A stretch of DNA of 64,000 nt from Syntrophaceae bacterium UBA4054. GTDB taxonomy: Bacteria > Desulfobacterota > Syntrophia > Syntrophales > UBA4778. Made by a program: the position numbers and the translations under genes. Below are positions 3,223-48,623 of the stretch, piece after piece; position 1 is the stretch's first letter; every line of letters starts with the position of its first letter. The stretch lies in NCBI GenBank assembly GCA_002383495.1, contig DFZO01000050.1, positions 19,397-83,396 on the forward strand. Reading direction: 5' to 3'. Under the pieces are notes generated by a model. It saw only the letters and a list, made by a program, of their open reading frames with translations. It had not been told where the DNA came from and did no database searches.

Positions 3223-3353
3223 TCAAAGGACCTCTCTACCCGCAGCGGATTGCGGAATTCTTAGTCATCATCATTGGTTGTGCCTTGAAAAGGTGACTTC
3301 GAACAACCCTGACAAGAATTCTTAGCAGAATAAAAAGGCTTTGTAAAGAAAAA

Positions 3354-3400
3354 ATACAACAAAATGTATTGCCGATAATAGAAACCACAATATGTTGTGT
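3354..3400. promoter_or_regulatory. Tandem NrdR-box-like palindromes
   Basis: CCACAATATGTTGTGT (3385-3400) and weaker ATACAACAAAATGTAT (3354-3369), offset 31 bp, resemble the NrdR consensus acaCwAtATaTwGtgt. Confidence 0.45.
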
Positions 3401-3456
3401 CTCACGAAGAAGAAATGAAATTTATGCCTTCATCGCGCGAAAACGAGTCTAACAAA

Positions 3457-3471
3457 TGAGATGTCATCTCA
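3457..3471. promoter_or_regulatory. Perfect 15-bp palindrome, candidate regulator site
   Basis: TGAGATG-T-CATCTCA, 9 bp upstream of a TTGACA. Confidence 0.4.
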
Positions 3472-3480
3472 GTTTTTTCC

Positions 3481-3509
3481 TTGACATGAAGGGTCGTACG
3501 GTTTATGAA
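3481..3509 (+). promoter_or_regulatory. Candidate sigma70 promoter of CoA-transferase 1
   Basis: TTGACA-N17-TATGAA (imperfect -10). Confidence 0.4.
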
Positions 3510-3716
3510 ATCGTAATCCTTTTTTCGTCGAAAACAGACAAAAAAACGGCCATTCGTCGGAGTTGAGCTAAATTTAATACAGAAAGGGGGGATCCCGCCG
3601 CCGGTTTATCACATTTCTTAACTTGTCCTTTTTGGACGGGGCCTTTGTTCAACACAAAGTGGATTGAAGTTTTCATGAAATCAATATCTTAATTAAAAGG
3701 GAGGGAACATTTCACT

Positions 3717-5264
3717 ATGGCGCAGAAACCTATTGCAAACAAAGGAAAAGTTACGATGACCACGCCCCTGCAGCAGAAGCTCAGGGATAAGATGATCACG
3801 GCCAAGAAATGGGCGGAAATGGTCAAACCGGGCGACTGGATCAACCGCGGCGGCCCCGGATCGGACGCGGTTGTGACGATGGAGGCCCTGGCTGCCAGAC
3901 TTGGCGGCGGCCCCGGGGATCTGAACAATATCGAGATCTGGAACCAGGCGATGATGTGCGGCAACGGCTTTTGCGCCGCAGCCGATATGGACGCAAAGTA
4001 CCACGTTGTCCACGAAGCCTTCCTTCTCGCGACCCTTCGCGGCCTCGTGACCAAGGGGTACAAGGCTATGGACTGGAAGCATTGGGGATGGTCACTGGGT
4101 ATGGATGCCGAGTACGCCCGTTTCTACAGGAAGGAAAAGACAAAACGCGCAATGGACTGGGGCGTCCAGGCATGCGCGGTACCGGAGGCGGGTTACGTGA
4201 ATGCCAGCTACGGCGTGAACAATTTCTTCATCACCGCCAAATCCTGCAAGAAGTTCGTCTGCGAAATCCGTGACGATTATGCCTGGTGCGAAGCAGGAAG
4301 GAGCATGTACCTTCCCATTGACGAAGTGGACTACTTCATCGAAGTGGATACCAGTCAGGAGAAATATCAGTGGCCCTACATAGCCGAAAAGGATATCAAG
4401 CCGAACGACACCCAGACGGCCATTGCAGACCACTGTCTCTCCCTTATGCGAGACGGCGATTGCATCCAGGTCGGAATCGGCGCGCTCCCCACGGCCGTGG
4501 TCATCGGACTGGCGAAATCCGACCTGAGGCATATCGGCGTCCACAGCGAAATGATCGGTGAGTACGCCTTCACGCTTTACGAAGCGGGCATCATGGACAA
4601 CACCCGGAAGGCCATCGACAAGGGAAGATGCGGCTGGGCCTACATCATGCCCGTCGACACACCCCGATATTACGAGTGGATGCATCGCAATCCTCTTTTC
4701 GCCGGGTATGACATCGGCTACACCAACAACGTCGTTACACTGTCCCAGATTGACAATTTCGTGACCGTCAACAACTTCGCACAGATGGATCTCAGGGGGC
4801 AGGACGCGGCGGGCAATGTCGGCGGCCGTCCCATCTCCTCGACGGGCGGGCAGTTCCAGTTCACCCTCGGCGCCTCCATGGCCAGGGGCGGCAGGGCCAT
4901 CCTTGCGGCGACGGCACGGGATGGAAAAGGCAAGTCCCGCATCGTGCCCATGCTGGAGCCCGGAAGTGTCGTGGCCGTGCCCGACTGGCTCGTGACCTAT
5001 GTGTGCACGGAATACGGCATCGTCAATATTCAGGGCTGCACGGATGCCGAGAAGGCGCGGAAGCTCATCTCCATCGCCCATCCCGATGACAGGGCAATGC
5101 TGGAGAAGGCGGCCGTTGAGCAGCTGAAGATCAAGTCCGATCACTGGATGTTCAAGAGCGCTCCCGATCGCCGCTTCCCGACAGCCGACGAGATGAAGGA
5201 GCATAAATACGGTTATGCGGATCTTGAGGTTCGTCCGAAAGAGATCGCCAAATTCACCGACTGA
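3717..5264 (+). CDS. Acetyl-CoA hydrolase/CoA-transferase family I (butyryl-CoA:acetate CoA-transferase-like), paralogue 1
   Basis: IQVGIGALP, GVHSEM (catalytic Glu), VCTEYGIVN, LISIAHPDDR. The start could be 3756, by alignment with paralogue 2. Confidence 0.88.
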   Translation: MAQKPIANKGKVTMTTPLQQKLRDKMITAKKWAEMVKPGDWINRGGPGSDAVVTMEALAARLGGGPGDLNNIEIWNQAMMCGNGFCAAADMDAKYHVVHEAFLLATLRGLVTKGYKAMDWKHWGWSLGMDAEYARFYRKEKTKRAMDWGVQACAVPEAGYVNASYGVNNFFITAKSCKKFVCEIRDDYAWCEAGRSMYLPIDEVDYFIEVDTSQEKYQWPYIAEKDIKPNDTQTAIADHCLSLMRDGDCIQVGIGALPTAVVIGLAKSDLRHIGVHSEMIGEYAFTLYEAGIMDNTRKAIDKGRCGWAYIMPVDTPRYYEWMHRNPLFAGYDIGYTNNVVTLSQIDNFVTVNNFAQMDLRGQDAAGNVGGRPISSTGGQFQFTLGASMARGGRAILAATARDGKGKSRIVPMLEPGSVVAVPDWLVTYVCTEYGIVNIQGCTDAEKARKLISIAHPDDRAMLEKAAVEQLKIKSDHWMFKSAPDRRFPTADEMKEHKYGYADLEVRPKEIAKFTD

Positions 5265-38966: not shown

Positions 38967-41201
38967 ATGAAAAGAGTGCTCATGTTCATCTTACCCATAG
39001 GGATTCTCGTCTCCATCGTCTTTGTGGCTTTCGGCTTCTTTGAGGCGCGGTCCATGGAAAAAAGGCTGACCGAGGAAGTCGGGCAAAAAGCCAAGGCCGT
39101 TGCGGAGAGCATGGAGCTGTCCGCGGCACAGGTTCTCATCAACGTCGACATGAGCAGGGCCAGGCGTCTGGTCCAGAAGTTCGAGAATCGGGAAAGGCTC
39201 CAGGGCTGTGTCATCTATGATGAAAACGGGCGGATCTTCGCCATTACCAAAAGATTCTCGGATTGGAAAGAAAAAGAAAAACCTTACGTGGCAAGTGTGC
39301 TGAAGAGCAAAGACCCGGGGGGTAAGATCGAAAAATTCAAGGATCATCCCGTCTACAGCTACGTTCTGCCCATTTTGGATGATGAGGATCACGTTCTGGG
39401 GCTCGTGGAAGTCATTTACGATACGTCCTATATCTTCACGAGGCGGACCGACCTCTGGCGGAGCATAAGCATCACGCTGACGTTTCTGCTGATTTCCGTT
39501 CTGTTGATATCCCTGTTCACCCACAGGCAATTCTTTGAGGTGCCCGTTCAACGCCTCACAGAGTGGTTCGAGCATTTCCAGAAGGGCACCACGGATGAGA
39601 AACCGCCTGTCAGGGAAACAGGTGATCTGGGAAAACTGGCTTCCGAAGTGGAGCAGGCCGCCCTGAGTTTAAGGGTGGCGAGAAAGTCCATGATTGAAGA
39701 GGCGCAGGAACGGATCCAGTACGATGAAATATGGACGGAGACAAAGCTGAAAGACCTTGTCAGGGCCAAATTGGGGGATCACGCCCTCTTTGTCGTTTCC
39801 AACAGGGAACCTTATATCCATATGATGGACGAAAAAAACAATGAACCCCGATGCGTGTTTCCGGCAAGCGGTGTCGTCACCGCGATCGATCCGATCCTGC
39901 GCGCCTGCGGCGGAACCTGGATTGCGCACGGGAGCGGAAATGCCGATCGAAAGGTCGTCAATTCAAGCGATAAGGTCGGCGTGCCGCCCGGGAATGAACG
40001 CTATATCCTCAAAAGGGTGTGGTTATCCAAGGAAGAAGAGGAAGGCTACTACTATGGTTTTTCCAATGAAGGACTGTGGCCTCTGTGTCATATTACACAC
40101 ACGCGGCCGATTTTCAAAGAATCGGATTGGCGGATATACAGGGAGGTCAACCAGAAGTTCGCCGACAGCGTTCTGGCGGAACTGCCCCGGCATCATCCCT
40201 TCGTGTTCATCCAGGATTACCACTTCACTCTTCTTCCACAGATGATCAAGGAAAAACGGCCCGATGCCACGGTCGCCCTGTTCTGGCACATACCGTGGCC
40301 GAATCCGGAGGTATTCTCGATCTGTCCCTATCAGAAGGAAATTCTGGAAGGCTTGCTGGGGTGCGATCTCCTCGGTTTCCACGTGCAGTTTCACTGCAAT
40401 AATTTTCTCGATACGGTGAACCGGGTTCTCGAATCCAGGGTGGACACGGAGCGCTTCAGTGTCGTGAGAACCGGAAAAGAAACCCTGGTCCGGGCGTTTC
40501 CGATCAGCCTGGACATCAATGTTTTTGGCGAGGCCTCCGACGGGGTGGATTCACAGATGGAAAGAATCAGAAAAGAATTAAAACTGGAGGACAAGATCGT
40601 CGCTGTGAGCGTTGAGAGAATGGATTATACGAAAGGCATGATCGAAAGAATTTATGCCATAGACCGCTTTCTTGAAAAATATCCTCAATACATCAACCGG
40701 TTTGTTTTCATTCAGATAGCCGCCCCGAGCCGTACGCTGATCAAGCGCTACCATGATTTTGTGGCGGAGGTGGACGAACTGGTGGAGAGAAAGAACTGGA
40801 AGTACTCCCAGGGGGACTGGAAGCCGATTGTCTATTTCAACAGACAATTTTCTCAGGAAGAAATCAAGCCTTATTACAGGCTCGCGGATCTCTGCATGGT
40901 CAGCTCCCTTCATGACGGGATGAATCTCGTGGCCAAAGAATTTGTCGCGGCTAAAATCGATGCATCGGGAATTCTGATTCTGAGCCGTTTCACGGGAGCG
41001 TCCCGGGAGCTCGTCGATGCGATTCAGATCAATCCCTATGCCATCGAGGAGTTTGCCGACAGCATCCGTTTTGCCATTGAAATGCCTGCAGAGGAAAAGA
41101 GAAGGCGGATGGTGAATATGCGGGAAATGATCAGCAGGAACAATGTGTATGGCTGGGCCGCCAACATCATCACCGATCTTGCCGCAATGAAAAAATTTTA
41201 A
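38967..41201 (+). CDS. otsA: Trehalose-6-phosphate synthase (GT20) fused to an N-terminal TM-periplasmic-TM-HAMP-like module
   Basis: C-terminal ~480 aa carry VSNRE, QDYHF, FWHIPWP, VERMDYTKG and DGMNLVAKE. The N-terminal ~260 aa has two TM helices around a soluble domain. Confidence 0.88.
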   Translation: MKRVLMFILPIGILVSIVFVAFGFFEARSMEKRLTEEVGQKAKAVAESMELSAAQVLINVDMSRARRLVQKFENRERLQGCVIYDENGRIFAITKRFSDWKEKEKPYVASVLKSKDPGGKIEKFKDHPVYSYVLPILDDEDHVLGLVEVIYDTSYIFTRRTDLWRSISITLTFLLISVLLISLFTHRQFFEVPVQRLTEWFEHFQKGTTDEKPPVRETGDLGKLASEVEQAALSLRVARKSMIEEAQERIQYDEIWTETKLKDLVRAKLGDHALFVVSNREPYIHMMDEKNNEPRCVFPASGVVTAIDPILRACGGTWIAHGSGNADRKVVNSSDKVGVPPGNERYILKRVWLSKEEEEGYYYGFSNEGLWPLCHITHTRPIFKESDWRIYREVNQKFADSVLAELPRHHPFVFIQDYHFTLLPQMIKEKRPDATVALFWHIPWPNPEVFSICPYQKEILEGLLGCDLLGFHVQFHCNNFLDTVNRVLESRVDTERFSVVRTGKETLVRAFPISLDINVFGEASDGVDSQMERIRKELKLEDKIVAVSVERMDYTKGMIERIYAIDRFLEKYPQYINRFVFIQIAAPSRTLIKRYHDFVAEVDELVERKNWKYSQGDWKPIVYFNRQFSQEEIKPYYRLADLCMVSSLHDGMNLVAKEFVAAKIDASGILILSRFTGASRELVDAIQINPYAIEEFADSIRFAIEMPAEEKRRRMVNMREMISRNNVYGWAANIITDLAAMKKF

Positions 41202-44332: not shown

Positions 44333-44408
44333 GGGCGATTAGCTCAGTGGATAGAGCACAGGCCTCCGGAGCCTGGTGTCGAGGGTTCAAATCCCTCATC
44401 GCCCTCCA
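44333..44408 (+). tRNA. tRNA-Arg(CCG)
   Basis: GGGCGAT/ATCGCCC acceptor stem, D-loop GGA, anticodon arm CAGGC-CTCCGGA-GCCTG, GGTTCAAATCC T-arm, encoded CCA. Confidence 0.93.
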
Positions 44409-44722
44409 GGTTTTACCTGCCGTTCGGGACGATTGAATCATATCCTGAAATACCTGCCATCCAAGAGTCTGATATCCGCCCGCTCAGTGTTTTATTGCGC
44501 AGCGTATAACAGCCATTAAAATTTGACGAATATTCTTGACTTTAATCTCAGGCAGATAATAATCTATTAAAGAAGATGAGAGGGTATCCTGTTGTTTTAT
44601 AAGATTTTAATCCTTTTACCCGATTGAGGGTTGACATGCGCCCATGACAAGAATCCCGTTGCTGAAAAGAGGACGGGGTTTTTGCGTTTCAAGGACGCCC
44701 GCAACGCCTGGAGAATATCTTC

Positions 44723-45703
44723 ATGAAGAGTGCCGCTGTCTTCTCAACGGGAAGTTATCTTCCGGAGACGATCATTCCAAACGAAGCGCTGACCCAGTTT
44801 TCTCCCGAGGCGCGCCGTCTCATCGGAGAGAAGACGGGGGTTTTTTCAAGAAGATGCGCCTCCGATGATGAATGCACCTCGGATCTGGCCATCAAAGCAG
44901 CTCTCTCCTGTCTTCAGAAGGCCGGCGTCCCGCCTGAGGAAATAGAAGGCATTGTGGTTTCCACGTCCTCGCCCGACCGGATGCAGCCCGCAACGGCGAC
45001 CCGTGTTCAGTATGAGATAGGCGCGAAAAAGGCCTTTGCCTTTGACATCAATTCTGTCTGTTCGGGGGGTTCTTTCGGGATCGAAGTGTCAGATTCTTTC
45101 ATCCGGTCCGGTAAATATGAAAACATTCTTTTGATCGCCGCTGAAATGTACTCGAGGATTCTCAATAAAAAAGATTTTTCCACCTATCCCTTTTTTGGGG
45201 ACGGCGCCGGGGCCGTTCTGTTCCGCGCGGATTCTTCGGGTCAGAGAGGCGTTCTGCATTCATGCCTGGCCACGGATGGAGCCGGAAACAACACTATCTG
45301 CGTACCCGGCGGAGGCACCATGCTGCCCTATGAGAAGATGACCGGTCCCCGCATGGCCTATTTCAGGATGAAGGGGGAGGAGGTTTTTGCCTTTTCCATC
45401 GACAAGGGGCCCAAGGTCATCTCACGGCTCCTCGCGGAGGCCAAGGTGGATATCGCGGCTGTAAAGCGCTTTATCTGTCATCAGGCCAATATCAATATCC
45501 TTCACAGGATCGCGGACATCCTGCATGTGCCCAGGGAGCGATTCCATGTGAATCTTGATCGATACGGCAATACAGCCAGCGCGTCTGTATTGATCGCCCT
45601 CGACGAGGTCCTTTCTAAAGGGATTGCGGCGCCCGGCGACCTGGTAATGCTGGTGACCTTTGGAGGCGGTTTCTCGTGGGGAGCAAATTTACTCCGGATT
45701 TAG
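44723..45703 (+). CDS. fabH: Ketosynthase III family (FabH-like; NphT7/acetoacetyl-CoA-synthase-like motifs)
   Basis: Cys-His-Asn triad (NSVCSG, CHQAN, GNTASAS) and FGDGAGA. Confidence 0.9.
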   Translation: MKSAAVFSTGSYLPETIIPNEALTQFSPEARRLIGEKTGVFSRRCASDDECTSDLAIKAALSCLQKAGVPPEEIEGIVVSTSSPDRMQPATATRVQYEIGAKKAFAFDINSVCSGGSFGIEVSDSFIRSGKYENILLIAAEMYSRILNKKDFSTYPFFGDGAGAVLFRADSSGQRGVLHSCLATDGAGNNTICVPGGGTMLPYEKMTGPRMAYFRMKGEEVFAFSIDKGPKVISRLLAEAKVDIAAVKRFICHQANINILHRIADILHVPRERFHVNLDRYGNTASASVLIALDEVLSKGIAAPGDLVMLVTFGGGFSWGANLLRI

Positions 45704-45732
45704 CTGGCCTTTCAGAGACGGGGGAGATAGTC

Positions 45733-45978
45733 ATGGATGATATTTTTGCAAAGATAAAAAACGGAATCCTGGACCTCTTTCCGGAAATCGGCAGCCTGCC
45801 GATCACGGCGGACACGCGCCTCGGAGAGATACCGGATTTTGATTCCATGGCCGCTGTAAACCTCCAGACTTTTTTGGAGGAAAACTTCCCCTTGAAAATT
45901 CCGCTGGATATGCTGAACGAGGAAACAACCATCGGTGAGCTGGTTGTTCACATTGGGAAATATGTCCGAAAAAAATAA
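45733..45978 (+). CDS. Acyl carrier protein (divergent)
   Basis: 81 aa, acidic, LGEIPDFDSMAAVNL (phosphopantetheine Ser); GGGGAG RBS. Confidence 0.85.
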   Translation: MDDIFAKIKNGILDLFPEIGSLPITADTRLGEIPDFDSMAAVNLQTFLEENFPLKIPLDMLNEETTIGELVVHIGKYVRKK

Positions 45979-47656
45979 GACCGCCCCGGAGACCGGAAGA
46001 GAAGCGGATGTTTTCGGAATTATTCCGGCACTGATCGAAGTCCATCGCTCCTGGATGGAACGCCCGCAGGAATTTGCCCGGATGCGGATGGATCTGATGG
46101 TCCGTCTTGAGGAAGCGGCGCGGGAAGAGATCGCGCGTCTTCTGCCCGCCGATTCCTCGCCTCAGGATCAGGAGGATGGCGCCGTGTCCTTTCTGGACAT
46201 GATGAAAACAGGAGGCCAGCTCGCCAGAAAATATCACGCGATTCATCAGAAATGGCTCAAAGAGTTCATTGAGCAGGCCCAGGGGATGGAGGAGAGAGAA
46301 AGACAGCGCGCCCTTTTCTGGACCCGGCAGTTGATCAACGCCTGCTCGCCGGCGAATTTCTTCTGGACCAATCCCGGGGCCCTTCAGCGGTTCATGGACA
46401 GCTCCGGAGAAAGTCTCATGCGCGGGGTTCAGCGCTTTCATGAGGATCTTCAGCTCGGAAATTTTCTTCTCAGGCTGACGGATGACACGGCATGGAAGAT
46501 CGGAGAGAACATTGCCGCGACGCCCGGCCGCGTCGTATTCCGGAATGAGCTGATGGAGCTGATACAGTATGAGCCGGCGACGAAGAAGACGCTGGCCGTC
46601 CCCGTGGTCTTCATCCAGCCCTGGATCAATAAATTTTACATCTTTGATTTAAACCCGCCCATGAGCTTTGTGGGCTACCTCCGGGATCGGGGGTTCACGG
46701 TGTTCATCATCAGCTGGAAGAATCCGACATCGATGATGCGCCGCGTGACCTTTGAGGATTACATGCTGCAGGGAGCCCTGAAGGCCATAGAAGCGGCCCG
46801 GGATATCTGCCGGTGCGATGCCGTGCATGCGGCGGGTTACTGCATCGGAGGGACCGCGCTGGCGGCTCTCATGGCCTGGTTCAACCGACAGCGTTCCAAA
46901 AGGAAAAAAGCCGTTCCAGTGTCGGACTGGACCTTGTTTTCAACACTGGTGGATTTTTCAGAACCGGGGGACCTGGGCTTTTTCATCACCGAAAAATCCG
47001 TTGCGGCCGTTGAAGAACTGATGGAAGAAAACGGTTATCTGAGCGAGAAGTATATTGAGATGGCCTTTCGCATGCTCGGGTCCGACAGCCTGATCTGGCG
47101 AAATTTCGTTCAAACCTGTCTTTTCGGCGCGGCCCCGCCCAAATCGGATGTCCTCTTCTGGAACAGCGACAGCACCCGGCTGCCGGAGGCCATGTGCGCA
47201 TTCTATCTCCGGGATCTCTATTTGAATAACCGTCTGGCCGAAAAGGATGGTCTCGTTCTGGGCGGTCGTTCCATCGACCTGGGCTGCATCGAACAGCCCC
47301 TTTATGTCGTCGGCACGCAGCTGGATCACATTTGTCCCTGGAAAAGCACGTTTAAAACCTGCAGCCTGGTCGGAGGTCCCGTCCGGTATGTTCTTTCAAG
47401 TGAGGGCCACATAACGGGAATCGTAAACCCGCCTTCCGAGACATCGCGGAGGAGATATTGGGCCGGTGATGCAGCGGGGGAGAGGGATCCGGAAAGCTGG
47501 CTGAGCCGCCAGGAGGAAGGCAGGGGTTCCTGGTGGGAGGACTGGGCCGCGTGGCTGTCCGTCAGGAGCGCGGGTGAGAGACGGACGCCGTCCATGGGAT
47601 CCCGGAAATATCCGCCTCTCGAAAAAGCCCCCGGATCTTACGTCATGGAGCGTTGA
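45962..47656 (+). CDS. phaC: Polyhydroxyalkanoate synthase PhaC (single-subunit class I/II type)
   Basis: SPANFFWTNP, IAATPGRVV, PWINKFYIFDL, GYCIGG (Cys), DHICPW (Asp), GHITG (His), APGSYV. Confidence 0.93.
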   Translation: MSEKNKTAPETGREADVFGIIPALIEVHRSWMERPQEFARMRMDLMVRLEEAAREEIARLLPADSSPQDQEDGAVSFLDMMKTGGQLARKYHAIHQKWLKEFIEQAQGMEERERQRALFWTRQLINACSPANFFWTNPGALQRFMDSSGESLMRGVQRFHEDLQLGNFLLRLTDDTAWKIGENIAATPGRVVFRNELMELIQYEPATKKTLAVPVVFIQPWINKFYIFDLNPPMSFVGYLRDRGFTVFIISWKNPTSMMRRVTFEDYMLQGALKAIEAARDICRCDAVHAAGYCIGGTALAALMAWFNRQRSKRKKAVPVSDWTLFSTLVDFSEPGDLGFFITEKSVAAVEELMEENGYLSEKYIEMAFRMLGSDSLIWRNFVQTCLFGAAPPKSDVLFWNSDSTRLPEAMCAFYLRDLYLNNRLAEKDGLVLGGRSIDLGCIEQPLYVVGTQLDHICPWKSTFKTCSLVGGPVRYVLSSEGHITGIVNPPSETSRRRYWAGDAAGERDPESWLSRQEEGRGSWWEDWAAWLSVRSAGERRTPSMGSRKYPPLEKAPGSYVMER

Positions 47657-47663
47657 ATGCCTT

Positions 47664-48623
47664 ATGGAGGGATCGAACGTCGGACTTGTTTTCCCCGGGC
47701 AGGGTTCTCAGTTTGTCGGCATGGGGGAAGACCTCTACAGGGAAAACGAAATCTTTAAAAAGGTTTTCCACCGCGCCCAGGACATCCTGGAGATGGATAT
47801 GCTGGGCCTCTGGACGAGAGGTCCTCGTGAAACCCTGGATCAGACCCTTTACACGCAGCTGGCCGTCCTGGTCTTTGAGCTGGCGGCCTCTGAGGCTTTC
47901 CGAAAAGAGGTTTCCCTCCGGCCCCGGGTCGCGGCAGGCCACAGCCTTGGCGAGTACAGCGCCATTTATGCCTCAGGTGCGCTGGACATGGAGGCGGTCT
48001 TGAACCTTGTCCGGGTGAGGGCGCAGCGCCACGAGGATGCCGTCCCCGCGGGGACGGGCGCCATGCTGGCCATTCTCGGGCTGGACGGCCGCTCCGTGGA
48101 AAAACTGTGTCTCGCGGCGAGCCGGGAGGGGGAAGAGGTCGATGTGGCCAACCTGAACGCGCCCATCCAGGTGGTTGTTTCGGGACATGTCCGTGCCGTG
48201 GAACGCTTGGCCCGCGCGGCTGAGAAGGCCGGCGCGAAAAAGACGGTCACCCTGCCCATCAGTGTTCCCTGTCATTGCCGGCTGCTCATGACGGCCTCGG
48301 AGCTTTTCGAGGAGAGCCTGAAGCGCGTGTCTTTCAAGTCCTTTCAGATACCGGTGATCCCCAACTGCGATCCAGCCGTCTTCTACACGCCTGAAAACGC
48401 GGCCGGGCTCTTGAAAAGGCAAATCACATCGCCGGTTCGCTGGCAGGAGACCATAGAGAGGATGGGGGCCATGGGCGTCGACACGATTGTGGAAATCGGC
48501 CCCAGAAAAGTCCTCTCCGGGCTCATTAAGAATATTGATCGAAGCATCCGGCTCTTTTATGTCGGGGACGTTTTGTCGCTCCGGAACACGGCCGAAGCGC
48601 TTAGCCTTCCGTCTTCCCAATGA
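47664..48623 (+). CDS. fabD: Malonyl-CoA:ACP transacylase
   Basis: FPGQGSQ, GHSLGEYS, ANLNAPIQVVVSG, VPCHC, EIGPRKVL. Confidence 0.93.
   Translation: MEGSNVGLVFPGQGSQFVGMGEDLYRENEIFKKVFHRAQDILEMDMLGLWTRGPRETLDQTLYTQLAVLVFELAASEAFRKEVSLRPRVAAGHSLGEYSAIYASGALDMEAVLNLVRVRAQRHEDAVPAGTGAMLAILGLDGRSVEKLCLAASREGEEVDVANLNAPIQVVVSGHVRAVERLARAAEKAGAKKTVTLPISVPCHCRLLMTASELFEESLKRVSFKSFQIPVIPNCDPAVFYTPENAAGLLKRQITSPVRWQETIERMGAMGVDTIVEIGPRKVLSGLIKNIDRSIRLFYVGDVLSLRNTAEALSLPSSQ

Follow-up and report, generated by a model that had tools for sequence, protein, structure and literature searches.

A conserved FabH-ACP-PhaC-FabD gene set of Syntrophales as a candidate carrier-protein-based supply line for polyhydroxyalkanoate synthesis

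In a 64,000-nt stretch of contig DFZO01000050.1 (hereafter, the window), which belongs to the 2.66-Mb Syntrophales (Thermodesulfobacteriota) metagenome-assembled genome Syntrophaceae bacterium UBA4054, we analysed four consecutive genes encoding a non-canonical β-ketoacyl-ACP synthase III (KAS III; FabHx), a divergent acyl carrier protein (ACP; ACPx), a polyhydroxyalkanoate (PHA) synthase (PhaCx) and a malonyl-coenzyme A (CoA):ACP transacylase (FabDx). The best explanation we can offer is that they form one operon and that this operon would act as a self-contained, carrier-protein-based and malonyl-driven supply line for PHA monomers, set apart from housekeeping fatty-acid synthesis and from catabolic β-oxidation; taken jointly, we regard this as evenly poised between right and wrong. 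A dedicated supply line had already been suggested in a first-pass annotation made from the letters of the window alone. As far as the linkage of the genes, a private FabH/ACP pair and the recruitment of reductases in relatives are concerned, the suggestion stands; on the other side, CoA-based supply is also encoded in the genome and the FabH/ACP pair also occurs free of PhaC.

All four open reading frames (ORFs) lie co-directionally on the plus strand between positions 44723 and 48623, with 29 nt between the FabH and ACP genes, an overlap of 17 nt between the ACP and PhaC genes, provided that PhaC begins with the ATG at 45962, and 7 nt between the PhaC and FabD genes. The ORFs and their spacing thus reproduce what the first-pass annotation had described, and so do the intact catalytic residues that it reported for all four products: Cys/His/Asn in FabHx, the Ser of the DSM motif in ACPx, Cys/Asp/His in PhaCx, and five FabD residues in FabDx. 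Upstream, a 314-nt leader between a tRNA-Arg(CCG) gene and fabHx holds one promoter-like site, and an Rfam E-value scan for riboswitches returned none, the tRNA being the sole match; downstream, the unit is limited by the rpsF operon. As had been noted before, the usual partners are missing from the neighbourhood: no phaA, phaB, phaR or phasin gene adjoins phaCx, and neither a thiolase nor a reductase, PhaR or PhaG-like gene is found within ~7 kb on either side of the unit.

The order FabH-ACP-PhaC-FabD is also present in the Syntrophales reference loci L006-L012 and L026, and the shorter order FabH-ACP-PhaC in the Desulfobacterales/Desulfococcaceae loci L013, L014 and L025. When 81 Syntrophales genomes were surveyed, with the PhaCx type defined as at least 53% identity, 12 carried it; all 12 also hold the FabHx type, adjacent wherever the contigs permit, and one genome of the order carries two copies of the module. 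Among 80 independent metagenome loci retrieved with a FabHx profile, an ACP gene directly follows FabHx in 74 of the 74 that have any room, and those with 4.5 kb or more of downstream sequence, 37 in number, divide into 23 with FabH-ACP-PhaC-FabD, 6 with FabH-ACP-PhaC and 8 with FabH-ACP only, so that PhaC follows FabH-ACP in 29 of 37. Since dozens of independent genomes and metagenome contigs show the same order, the arrangement goes far beyond chance.

In a tree of 98 PhaCs, the 23 linked ones form one clade with a support of 100. The PhaCs that come next in similarity (41-47% identity) are those of Gamma- and Betaproteobacteria, and these lack both a FabH and an ACP partner. The linkage persists across two orders down to ~52% PhaC identity, and in 44 of 63 junctions the PhaC frame starts in overlap with the ACP stop or at most 20 nt from it, a count that is somewhat favourable, since the start picked was the candidate nearest to the ACP stop. 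A single origin of the module linkage is thereby supported. The 30 FabHx-type enzymes likewise form one long-stemmed clade apart from classical FabHs (SH-aLRT, a likelihood-ratio branch support, of 98), within which the PhaC-linked members are basal or paraphyletic; two groups that lack PhaC are nested inside it. Hence, the four-gene synteny that the first-pass annotation proposed to survey is borne out as conserved by its recurrence in Syntrophales, by the shorter version in Desulfobacterales and by the single clade of linked PhaCs. The set holds as a unit only in part: its order is conserved, but the conserved core is FabH-ACP, which is also found without PhaC in a second type of operon. In the closest relative (L006, 89% PhaC identity), we also observed that the FabD match, at 3312-4423, falls into two pieces ~100 nt apart, for which a frameshift, an insert or an assembly error are possible causes.

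FabHx and ACPx look like a private, orthogonal KAS III/ACP pair that would do without the classical electrostatic interface. For the residue comparison, the FabHx clade was aligned to E. coli FabH (1HN9), using 30 clade members and then 80 metagenome homologues. The triad C112, H244 and N274 is kept by every member (30/30 and 80/80), and the best matches of FabHx among solved structures are FabHs, with E ~1e-60. Elsewhere, the window's FabHx departs from the E. coli enzyme by W32L, R36K, F87Q, L142Y, R151F, L205F, K214A, R249N, K256D and K257I. This pattern of replacement is clade-wide (30/30 and 80/80, with 79/80 at F87): W32 gives way to L, M or I, R36 to K, F87 to Q, L142 to Y, R151 to F, Y or (once) M, L205 to F and R249 to N or H (110/110 members), while at K214, K256 and K257 neutral or acidic residues prevail. 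All these E. coli residues are retained in the classical FabHs that the Desulfobacterales carriers possess.

Arg249, together with Lys214, Lys256 and Lys257, reportedly makes up the patch of FabH on which AcpP docks (Zhang et al. 2001, J Biol Chem), and this basic patch is not preserved in FabHx. Nor is the classical acyl-CoA primer site, W32/R151/R36: in structures of E. coli FabH with CoA, Trp32 and Arg151 sandwich the adenine, and the pantetheine is bound by Arg36 (PMC4606726). An acyl-CoA primer would thus probably be bound by FabHx in a non-classical pose, and the bulkier pocket residues L142Y and L205F suggest that it is very short. The carrier has changed as well. In ACPx, Ser38 stands in the motif FDSMAAVNLQ, which is kept in 72/72 homologues, and helix II reads DSMAAVNLQ against DSLDTVELV in AcpP, such that two acidic recognition residues are gone in all homologues (D38 to A and E41 to N). 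An AlphaFold model (pLDDT, the model's confidence score, 83.5) has a helix at 38-51 that begins at Ser38, and the best fold matches of this model in the PDB are ACPs (TM-score, a measure of fold similarity, ~0.75). In profile searches, the matches of ACPx to ACPs are weak, and it falls below the AcpP equivalog (TIGR00517, 19.4 vs 70.45), in agreement with its first description as divergent. The dedicated character that the same annotation gave to the set is strengthened by changes that match between FabH and ACP, run through the whole clade and fall on the classical docking interface.

FabDx keeps Gln11, Ser92, Arg117 (the binder of the malonyl carboxylate), His201 and Gln250, next to a clade-specific M121H, and is a FabD by a TIGR00128 score above the cut-off combined with all five residues. 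As the malonyl-binding residues are kept, FabDx should load malonate. The reductase that a malonyl-driven route would need is found in relatives: a PRK08217-type FabG-like short-chain dehydrogenase/reductase (SDR) directly follows PhaC in L012 and L109 (Syntrophales) and in L013 (Desulfobacterales), and these three are orthologues with mutual identities of 64-77%, each of which passes the cut-off of NF006072 ("3-ketoacyl-ACP reductase"). In L193 and L202, PhaC is followed by an SDR of a second lineage, which in L107 stands divergently beside the module. Reductases recruited into or beside the module, together with the conserved Arg117, agree well with the malonyl-driven logic proposed at first. 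In the window's genome, neither type of module SDR is found, and no PhaB equivalog reaches the TIGR01829 cut-off, the best match being the housekeeping FabG. A separate observation concerns a conserved ORF that comes directly after PhaC in L182 (9981-10250), L193 (7869-8150), L194 (9851-10240) and L202 (9975-10235). It is 86-93 aa long in three of these loci and was called at 129 aa in L194, its copies are 62-76% identical, and in L193 and L202 it precedes the second type of SDR; neither Pfam nor NCBIfam gave a match to it, and only its position makes it a phasin candidate.

Are these genes an accessory set, or do they serve housekeeping fatty-acid synthesis? The normal fab cluster, fabD-fabG-acpP-fabF-rpiB-glyA, was found on a separate contig (C47), which makes FabDx and ACPx genuine additional copies; FabDx shares 45% identity with the housekeeping FabD, and the genome has three FabD-like genes in all, that of FabDx included. 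The expectation of separate housekeeping genes thus holds for fabD and acpP but fails for fabH, as FabHx is the sole FabH above the family cut-off in its own genome, and the same applies to four other Syntrophales genomes. Its TIGR00747 score of 275.9 lies below the cut-off of 292.1. We considered FabHx as the housekeeping FabH of the lineage and rejected this assignment: its presence is patchy (21/81 Syntrophales and 4/401 genomes of the phylum), no FabH match at E <= 1e-30 exists in the remaining 60/81 Syntrophales, another KAS III-like gene is single-copy in 70/81, and the Desulfobacterales carriers of the PhaC-linked FabH keep a classical FabH too (435 bits). Furthermore, FabHx does not adjoin the fabD-fabG-acpP-fabF genes on C47, whereas a housekeeping initiator would be expected in or near a plsX-fab cluster.

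Canonical FabH is thus absent from 60/81 Syntrophales genomes. Two further regions of the genome are worth recording here. At C53:~70600-76600 (L005 8521-14579), genes for a FabD-like protein, an acyl-CoA dehydrogenase, a KAS III-like and a FabA-like protein are followed by ORFs of 164, 82 and 427 aa; the KAS III-like gene is 27% identical to FabHx and belongs to the type that is single-copy in 70/81 Syntrophales. The second region, C5:7300-9499, is a row of three genes for a MaoC-type hydratase, an SDR and a FabH-like protein that, at 22% identity to FabHx, is very divergent.

PhaCx looks like a canonical class-I-type PHA synthase. Its residues 97-562 align to 9knj, a PHA synthase of solved structure; conserved between the two are the Cys of GYCIGG, the Asp of LDHICPW, the His of EGHITG and the Trp of HWNSD, and PhaCx shares the PhaC_N domain and the single-subunit length (564 aa) of class I enzymes. 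It scores below the class I cut-off of TIGR01838 (536.8 vs 622.65) and falls in a distinct subclade, which is marked by six clade-specific positions only, W120, C283, W323, S327, R380 and S395. The last of these, encoded at 47144-47146 of the window, lies five residues before the HWNSD Trp and is Ser in 23/23 linked PhaCs, compared with Phe in 67/75 other PhaCs. By motif, we take it to correspond to Phe420 of Cupriavidus necator, where F420S reportedly raises activity and shortens the lag. Two related observations may be added. The PhaCx orthologue of one Syntrophales genome (G070:C12:56900-58570) has one in-frame TGA. In the window's own genome, C57:53522-55324 (minus strand) encodes a distant, 600-aa PhaC-like protein with a GYCMGG lipase box and only 93 bits against the class III PhaC model, and the N-terminus encoded by the gene after it looks, by eye, like that of 4-hydroxybutyryl-CoA dehydratase.

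In the pathway that we propose, FabDx would move malonate from malonyl-CoA onto ACPx, as its conserved malonyl-binding residues suggest. FabHx would then form a short 3-ketoacyl-ACPx, most likely acetoacetyl-ACPx, the primer presumably being either acetyl-CoA bound non-classically or decarboxylated malonyl-ACPx. Reduction by a FabG-type ketoreductase would give (R)-3-hydroxyacyl-ACPx, i.e. (R)-3-hydroxybutyryl-ACPx, and in the window's genome this step would probably fall to the housekeeping FabG or to another SDR. Finally, PhaCx would polymerise the units, either after their transfer to CoA or straight from the ACP thioester. The transfer to CoA would be a transacylation such as FabD and FabH reportedly showed in engineered E. 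coli.

Several observations weigh against a supply line of this kind. The operon itself is without a reductase, and the housekeeping FabG might not accept the remodelled ACPx. With 8 thiolases and 5 MaoC/PhaJ-type hydratases encoded in the genome, classical CoA-based supply to PhaC remains available; the suggestion that polyhydroxybutyrate (PHB) would be made independently of the catabolic thiolase hence had to be given up as a claim about the genome. Searches of the genome with PhaR and PhaZ models gave no match, although module-bearing relatives do have PhaR-like genes. By alignment, PhaCx is a very ordinary class-I-type enzyme, and none of its six clade-specific positions carries a signature of ACP use, which leaves the ACP-tethered variant of the first-pass annotation without a sequence sign of a switch from CoA to ACP substrates. 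That PhaCx draws (R)-3-hydroxyacyl units directly from ACPx, with no CoA ester at any stage, we accordingly rate as quite unlikely.

The pair also occurs without the polymerase. FabHx-ACPx is found without PhaCx in 8/21 Syntrophales genomes and in 8/37 roomy metagenome loci, mostly within a second conserved operon that comprises a 4HBT thioesterase, FabH, ACP, a GT2 glycosyltransferase, an MMPL-methyltransferase fusion and a 302-aa protein. L149 (8254-9883) and the genome locus L098 (6697-6773), which share the order NTP-transferase/APH fusion, FabH, ACP, 496-aa GT2 and DUF4922, are collinear and differ by a 1.6-kb segment that is exactly PhaC. Both findings count against the proposed supply line as well, and this clean presence or absence of PhaC at an otherwise collinear locus indicates that FabHx-ACPx has a use independent of PhaC. 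Examples of the second operon are L097 (4643-10277) and L153, L154, L166, L176 and L178 (from -1430 to +5100 relative to the FabH end); its GT2 has ~240 aa, its fusion protein of ~1035 aa joins an MMPL/sterol-sensing-like to a methyltransferase domain, and its product may be an exported acylated lipid or glycolipid.

The alternative that survives best, although we deem it rather unlikely, is adjacency without metabolic coupling. FabHx-ACPx, with or without FabDx, would then start some other short or modified acyl product, e.g. a lipid or glycolipid substituent, PhaCx would be fed with (R)-3-hydroxyacyl-CoA by β-oxidation and PhaJ-type hydratases or by thiolase and reductase, and the genes would stay together for reasons of co-regulation or history only. 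Such a separation would account for the PhaC-free pair in the thioesterase/GT2/MMPL-methyltransferase operon, for the insertion or deletion of PhaC at one collinear locus, for the thiolases and hydratases of the genome and for the canonical look of PhaCx. It accommodates far less well that PhaCx-type genes always stand with FabHx-ACPx wherever the context is complete and fall into one clade, that the ACP-PhaC junctions typically overlap or span at most 20 nt, that PhaC in particular has gathered around it a second, malonyl-specific FabD and FabG-like enzymes of two independent lineages, and that the linkage has outlasted divergence to ~52% PhaC identity in two orders.

We consider it very unlikely that FabHx works in the manner of NphT7, condensing acetyl-CoA with malonyl-CoA or malonyl-ACPx and freeing acetoacetyl-CoA, such that the reductase and PhaCx would use CoA esters only. 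The KAS III fold with its intact triad and without the classical AcpP-docking residues would suit this role, PhaCx resembles CoA-dependent synthases, and an engineered malonyl-driven PHB route via NphT7 does work (PMC11539682). However, an enzyme that handles CoA esters only would not need the co-varied carrier that follows FabH in 74/74 loci, FabHx also lacks W32 and R151 of the classical CoA-adenine clamp, and the operon includes a dedicated malonyl-CoA:ACP transacylase.

An equally slim chance is left to a non-storage product, where PhaCx would make short oligoesters from ACPx-bound 3-hydroxyacyl units or esterify a lipid, glycan or protein, and no granules would form: the missing PhaR and PhaZ matches, the GT2 and nucleotidyl-transferase genes that adjoin some module variants and the score of PhaCx under the class I trusted cut-off point this way, but all polymerase hallmarks are kept, including the Trp motif of the dimer/lid region, relatives with the module have PhaR-like genes, and we know of no PhaC homologue that makes oligoesters or esterifies lipid, glycan or protein acceptors.

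The features of the unit and of its leader are collected in Table 1. Outside the unit, positions 38967-41201 of the window encode a 744-aa protein with an N-terminal Cache-like sensor region and a GT20 trehalose-6-phosphate synthase domain (Pfam). The stretch is contained in DNA sequencing runs of metagenomes from hydrocarbon, groundwater and sediment sources.

Table 1. Features of the four-gene unit and its upstream region, in coordinates of the window
Feature	Position	Strand	Evidence
FabHx, non-canonical KAS III, 326 aa	44723..45703	+	NF006829 314.7 bits (cut-off 249)
ACPx, divergent acyl carrier protein, 81 aa	45733..45978	+	PF00550 25.1 bits (cut-off 20.8)
PhaCx, class-I-type PHA synthase, 564 aa	45962..47656	+	PhaC_N (PF07167) E = 4.5e-51; TIGR01838 536.8 bits
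FabDx, second malonyl-CoA:ACP transacylase, 319 aa	47664..48623	+	TIGR00128 306.8 bits (cut-off 260.9)
tRNA-Arg(CCG), upstream boundary of the unit	44333..44408	+	ARAGORN; Rfam tRNA 69 bits
Candidate sigma-70-like promoter, TTGACT-16-AATAAT	44536..44563	+	Consensus scan, 10/12 matches; pattern match alone

If the proposed supply line is real, it would be a new natural pathway of monomer supply for PHA, and it would explain how β-oxidising syntrophs manage to make polyester with a thiolase pool that is working towards degradation. The KAS III/ACP pair would be orthogonal and, not being expected to dock with AcpP partners, useful for pathway engineering. With four small genes at hand, the use of acyl-ACP by a PHA synthase becomes directly testable. 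Should PhaCx indeed use ACPx directly, it would be the first carrier-protein-dependent PHA synthase, the module would amount to a minimal type-II "polyester synthase" (malonyl transacylase, KAS III, ACP, ketoreductase and polymerase), and storage-polymer synthesis in syntrophs would be insulated from the reversible, CoA-based pool of β-oxidation.

The textbook routes to PHA monomers all end, to our knowledge, in CoA esters from PhaAB, PhaJ or PhaG, and malonyl-driven routes via FabH, FabD or NphT7 are known to us only from engineering. A full-text literature search on PHA in Syntrophus and Smithella, on PHA synthases with fabH and ACP and on 3-hydroxybutyryl-ACP with PhaC found no published description of such an operon, and no nearest known system unites a natural operon, a private KAS III/ACP pair and a class-I-type synthase. 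With phaCAB of the Cupriavidus necator type, the module shares the synthase, a single subunit of ~560 aa with PhaC_N, a GxCxG lipase box, Cys-Asp-His and the HWNSD Trp; it differs in that the partners of PhaCx are a KAS III, an ACP and a FabD instead of linked phaA and phaB, and in that PhaCx lies in its own clade, below the TIGR01838 cut-off. Canonical FabH (1HN9) and AcpP share with the pair the fold of FabHx and its Cys112-His244-Asn274, whereas W32, R151, F87, L142, L205, K214, R249, K256 and K257 are replaced in FabHx and ACPx is without D38 and E41 of helix II.

The PhaG route of pseudomonads likewise ties ACP-bound (R)-3-hydroxyacyl intermediates to PHA synthesis. PhaG, however, taps the housekeeping fatty-acid pool for C8-C12 units, which class II synthases turn into medium-chain-length PHA, whereas here a dedicated initiation module is combined with a class-I-type synthase; the operon holds no PhaG-like gene, and the genome was not searched for PhaG. 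Closest in logic are the engineered FabH/FabD and NphT7 routes to PHB in E. coli and Pseudomonas (Taguchi et al. 1999; Okamura et al. 2010), in which malonyl-driven, decarboxylative condensation also feeds C4 units to PhaC; in E. coli, PHB monomers become available when FabH or FabD is over-expressed, as reported for Taguchi et al. 1999 in PMC11539682. These routes are artificial and use either the housekeeping FabH, FabD and AcpP or the ACP-independent NphT7, whereas the genes described here are a natural, conserved set with a co-varied FabH/ACP pair.

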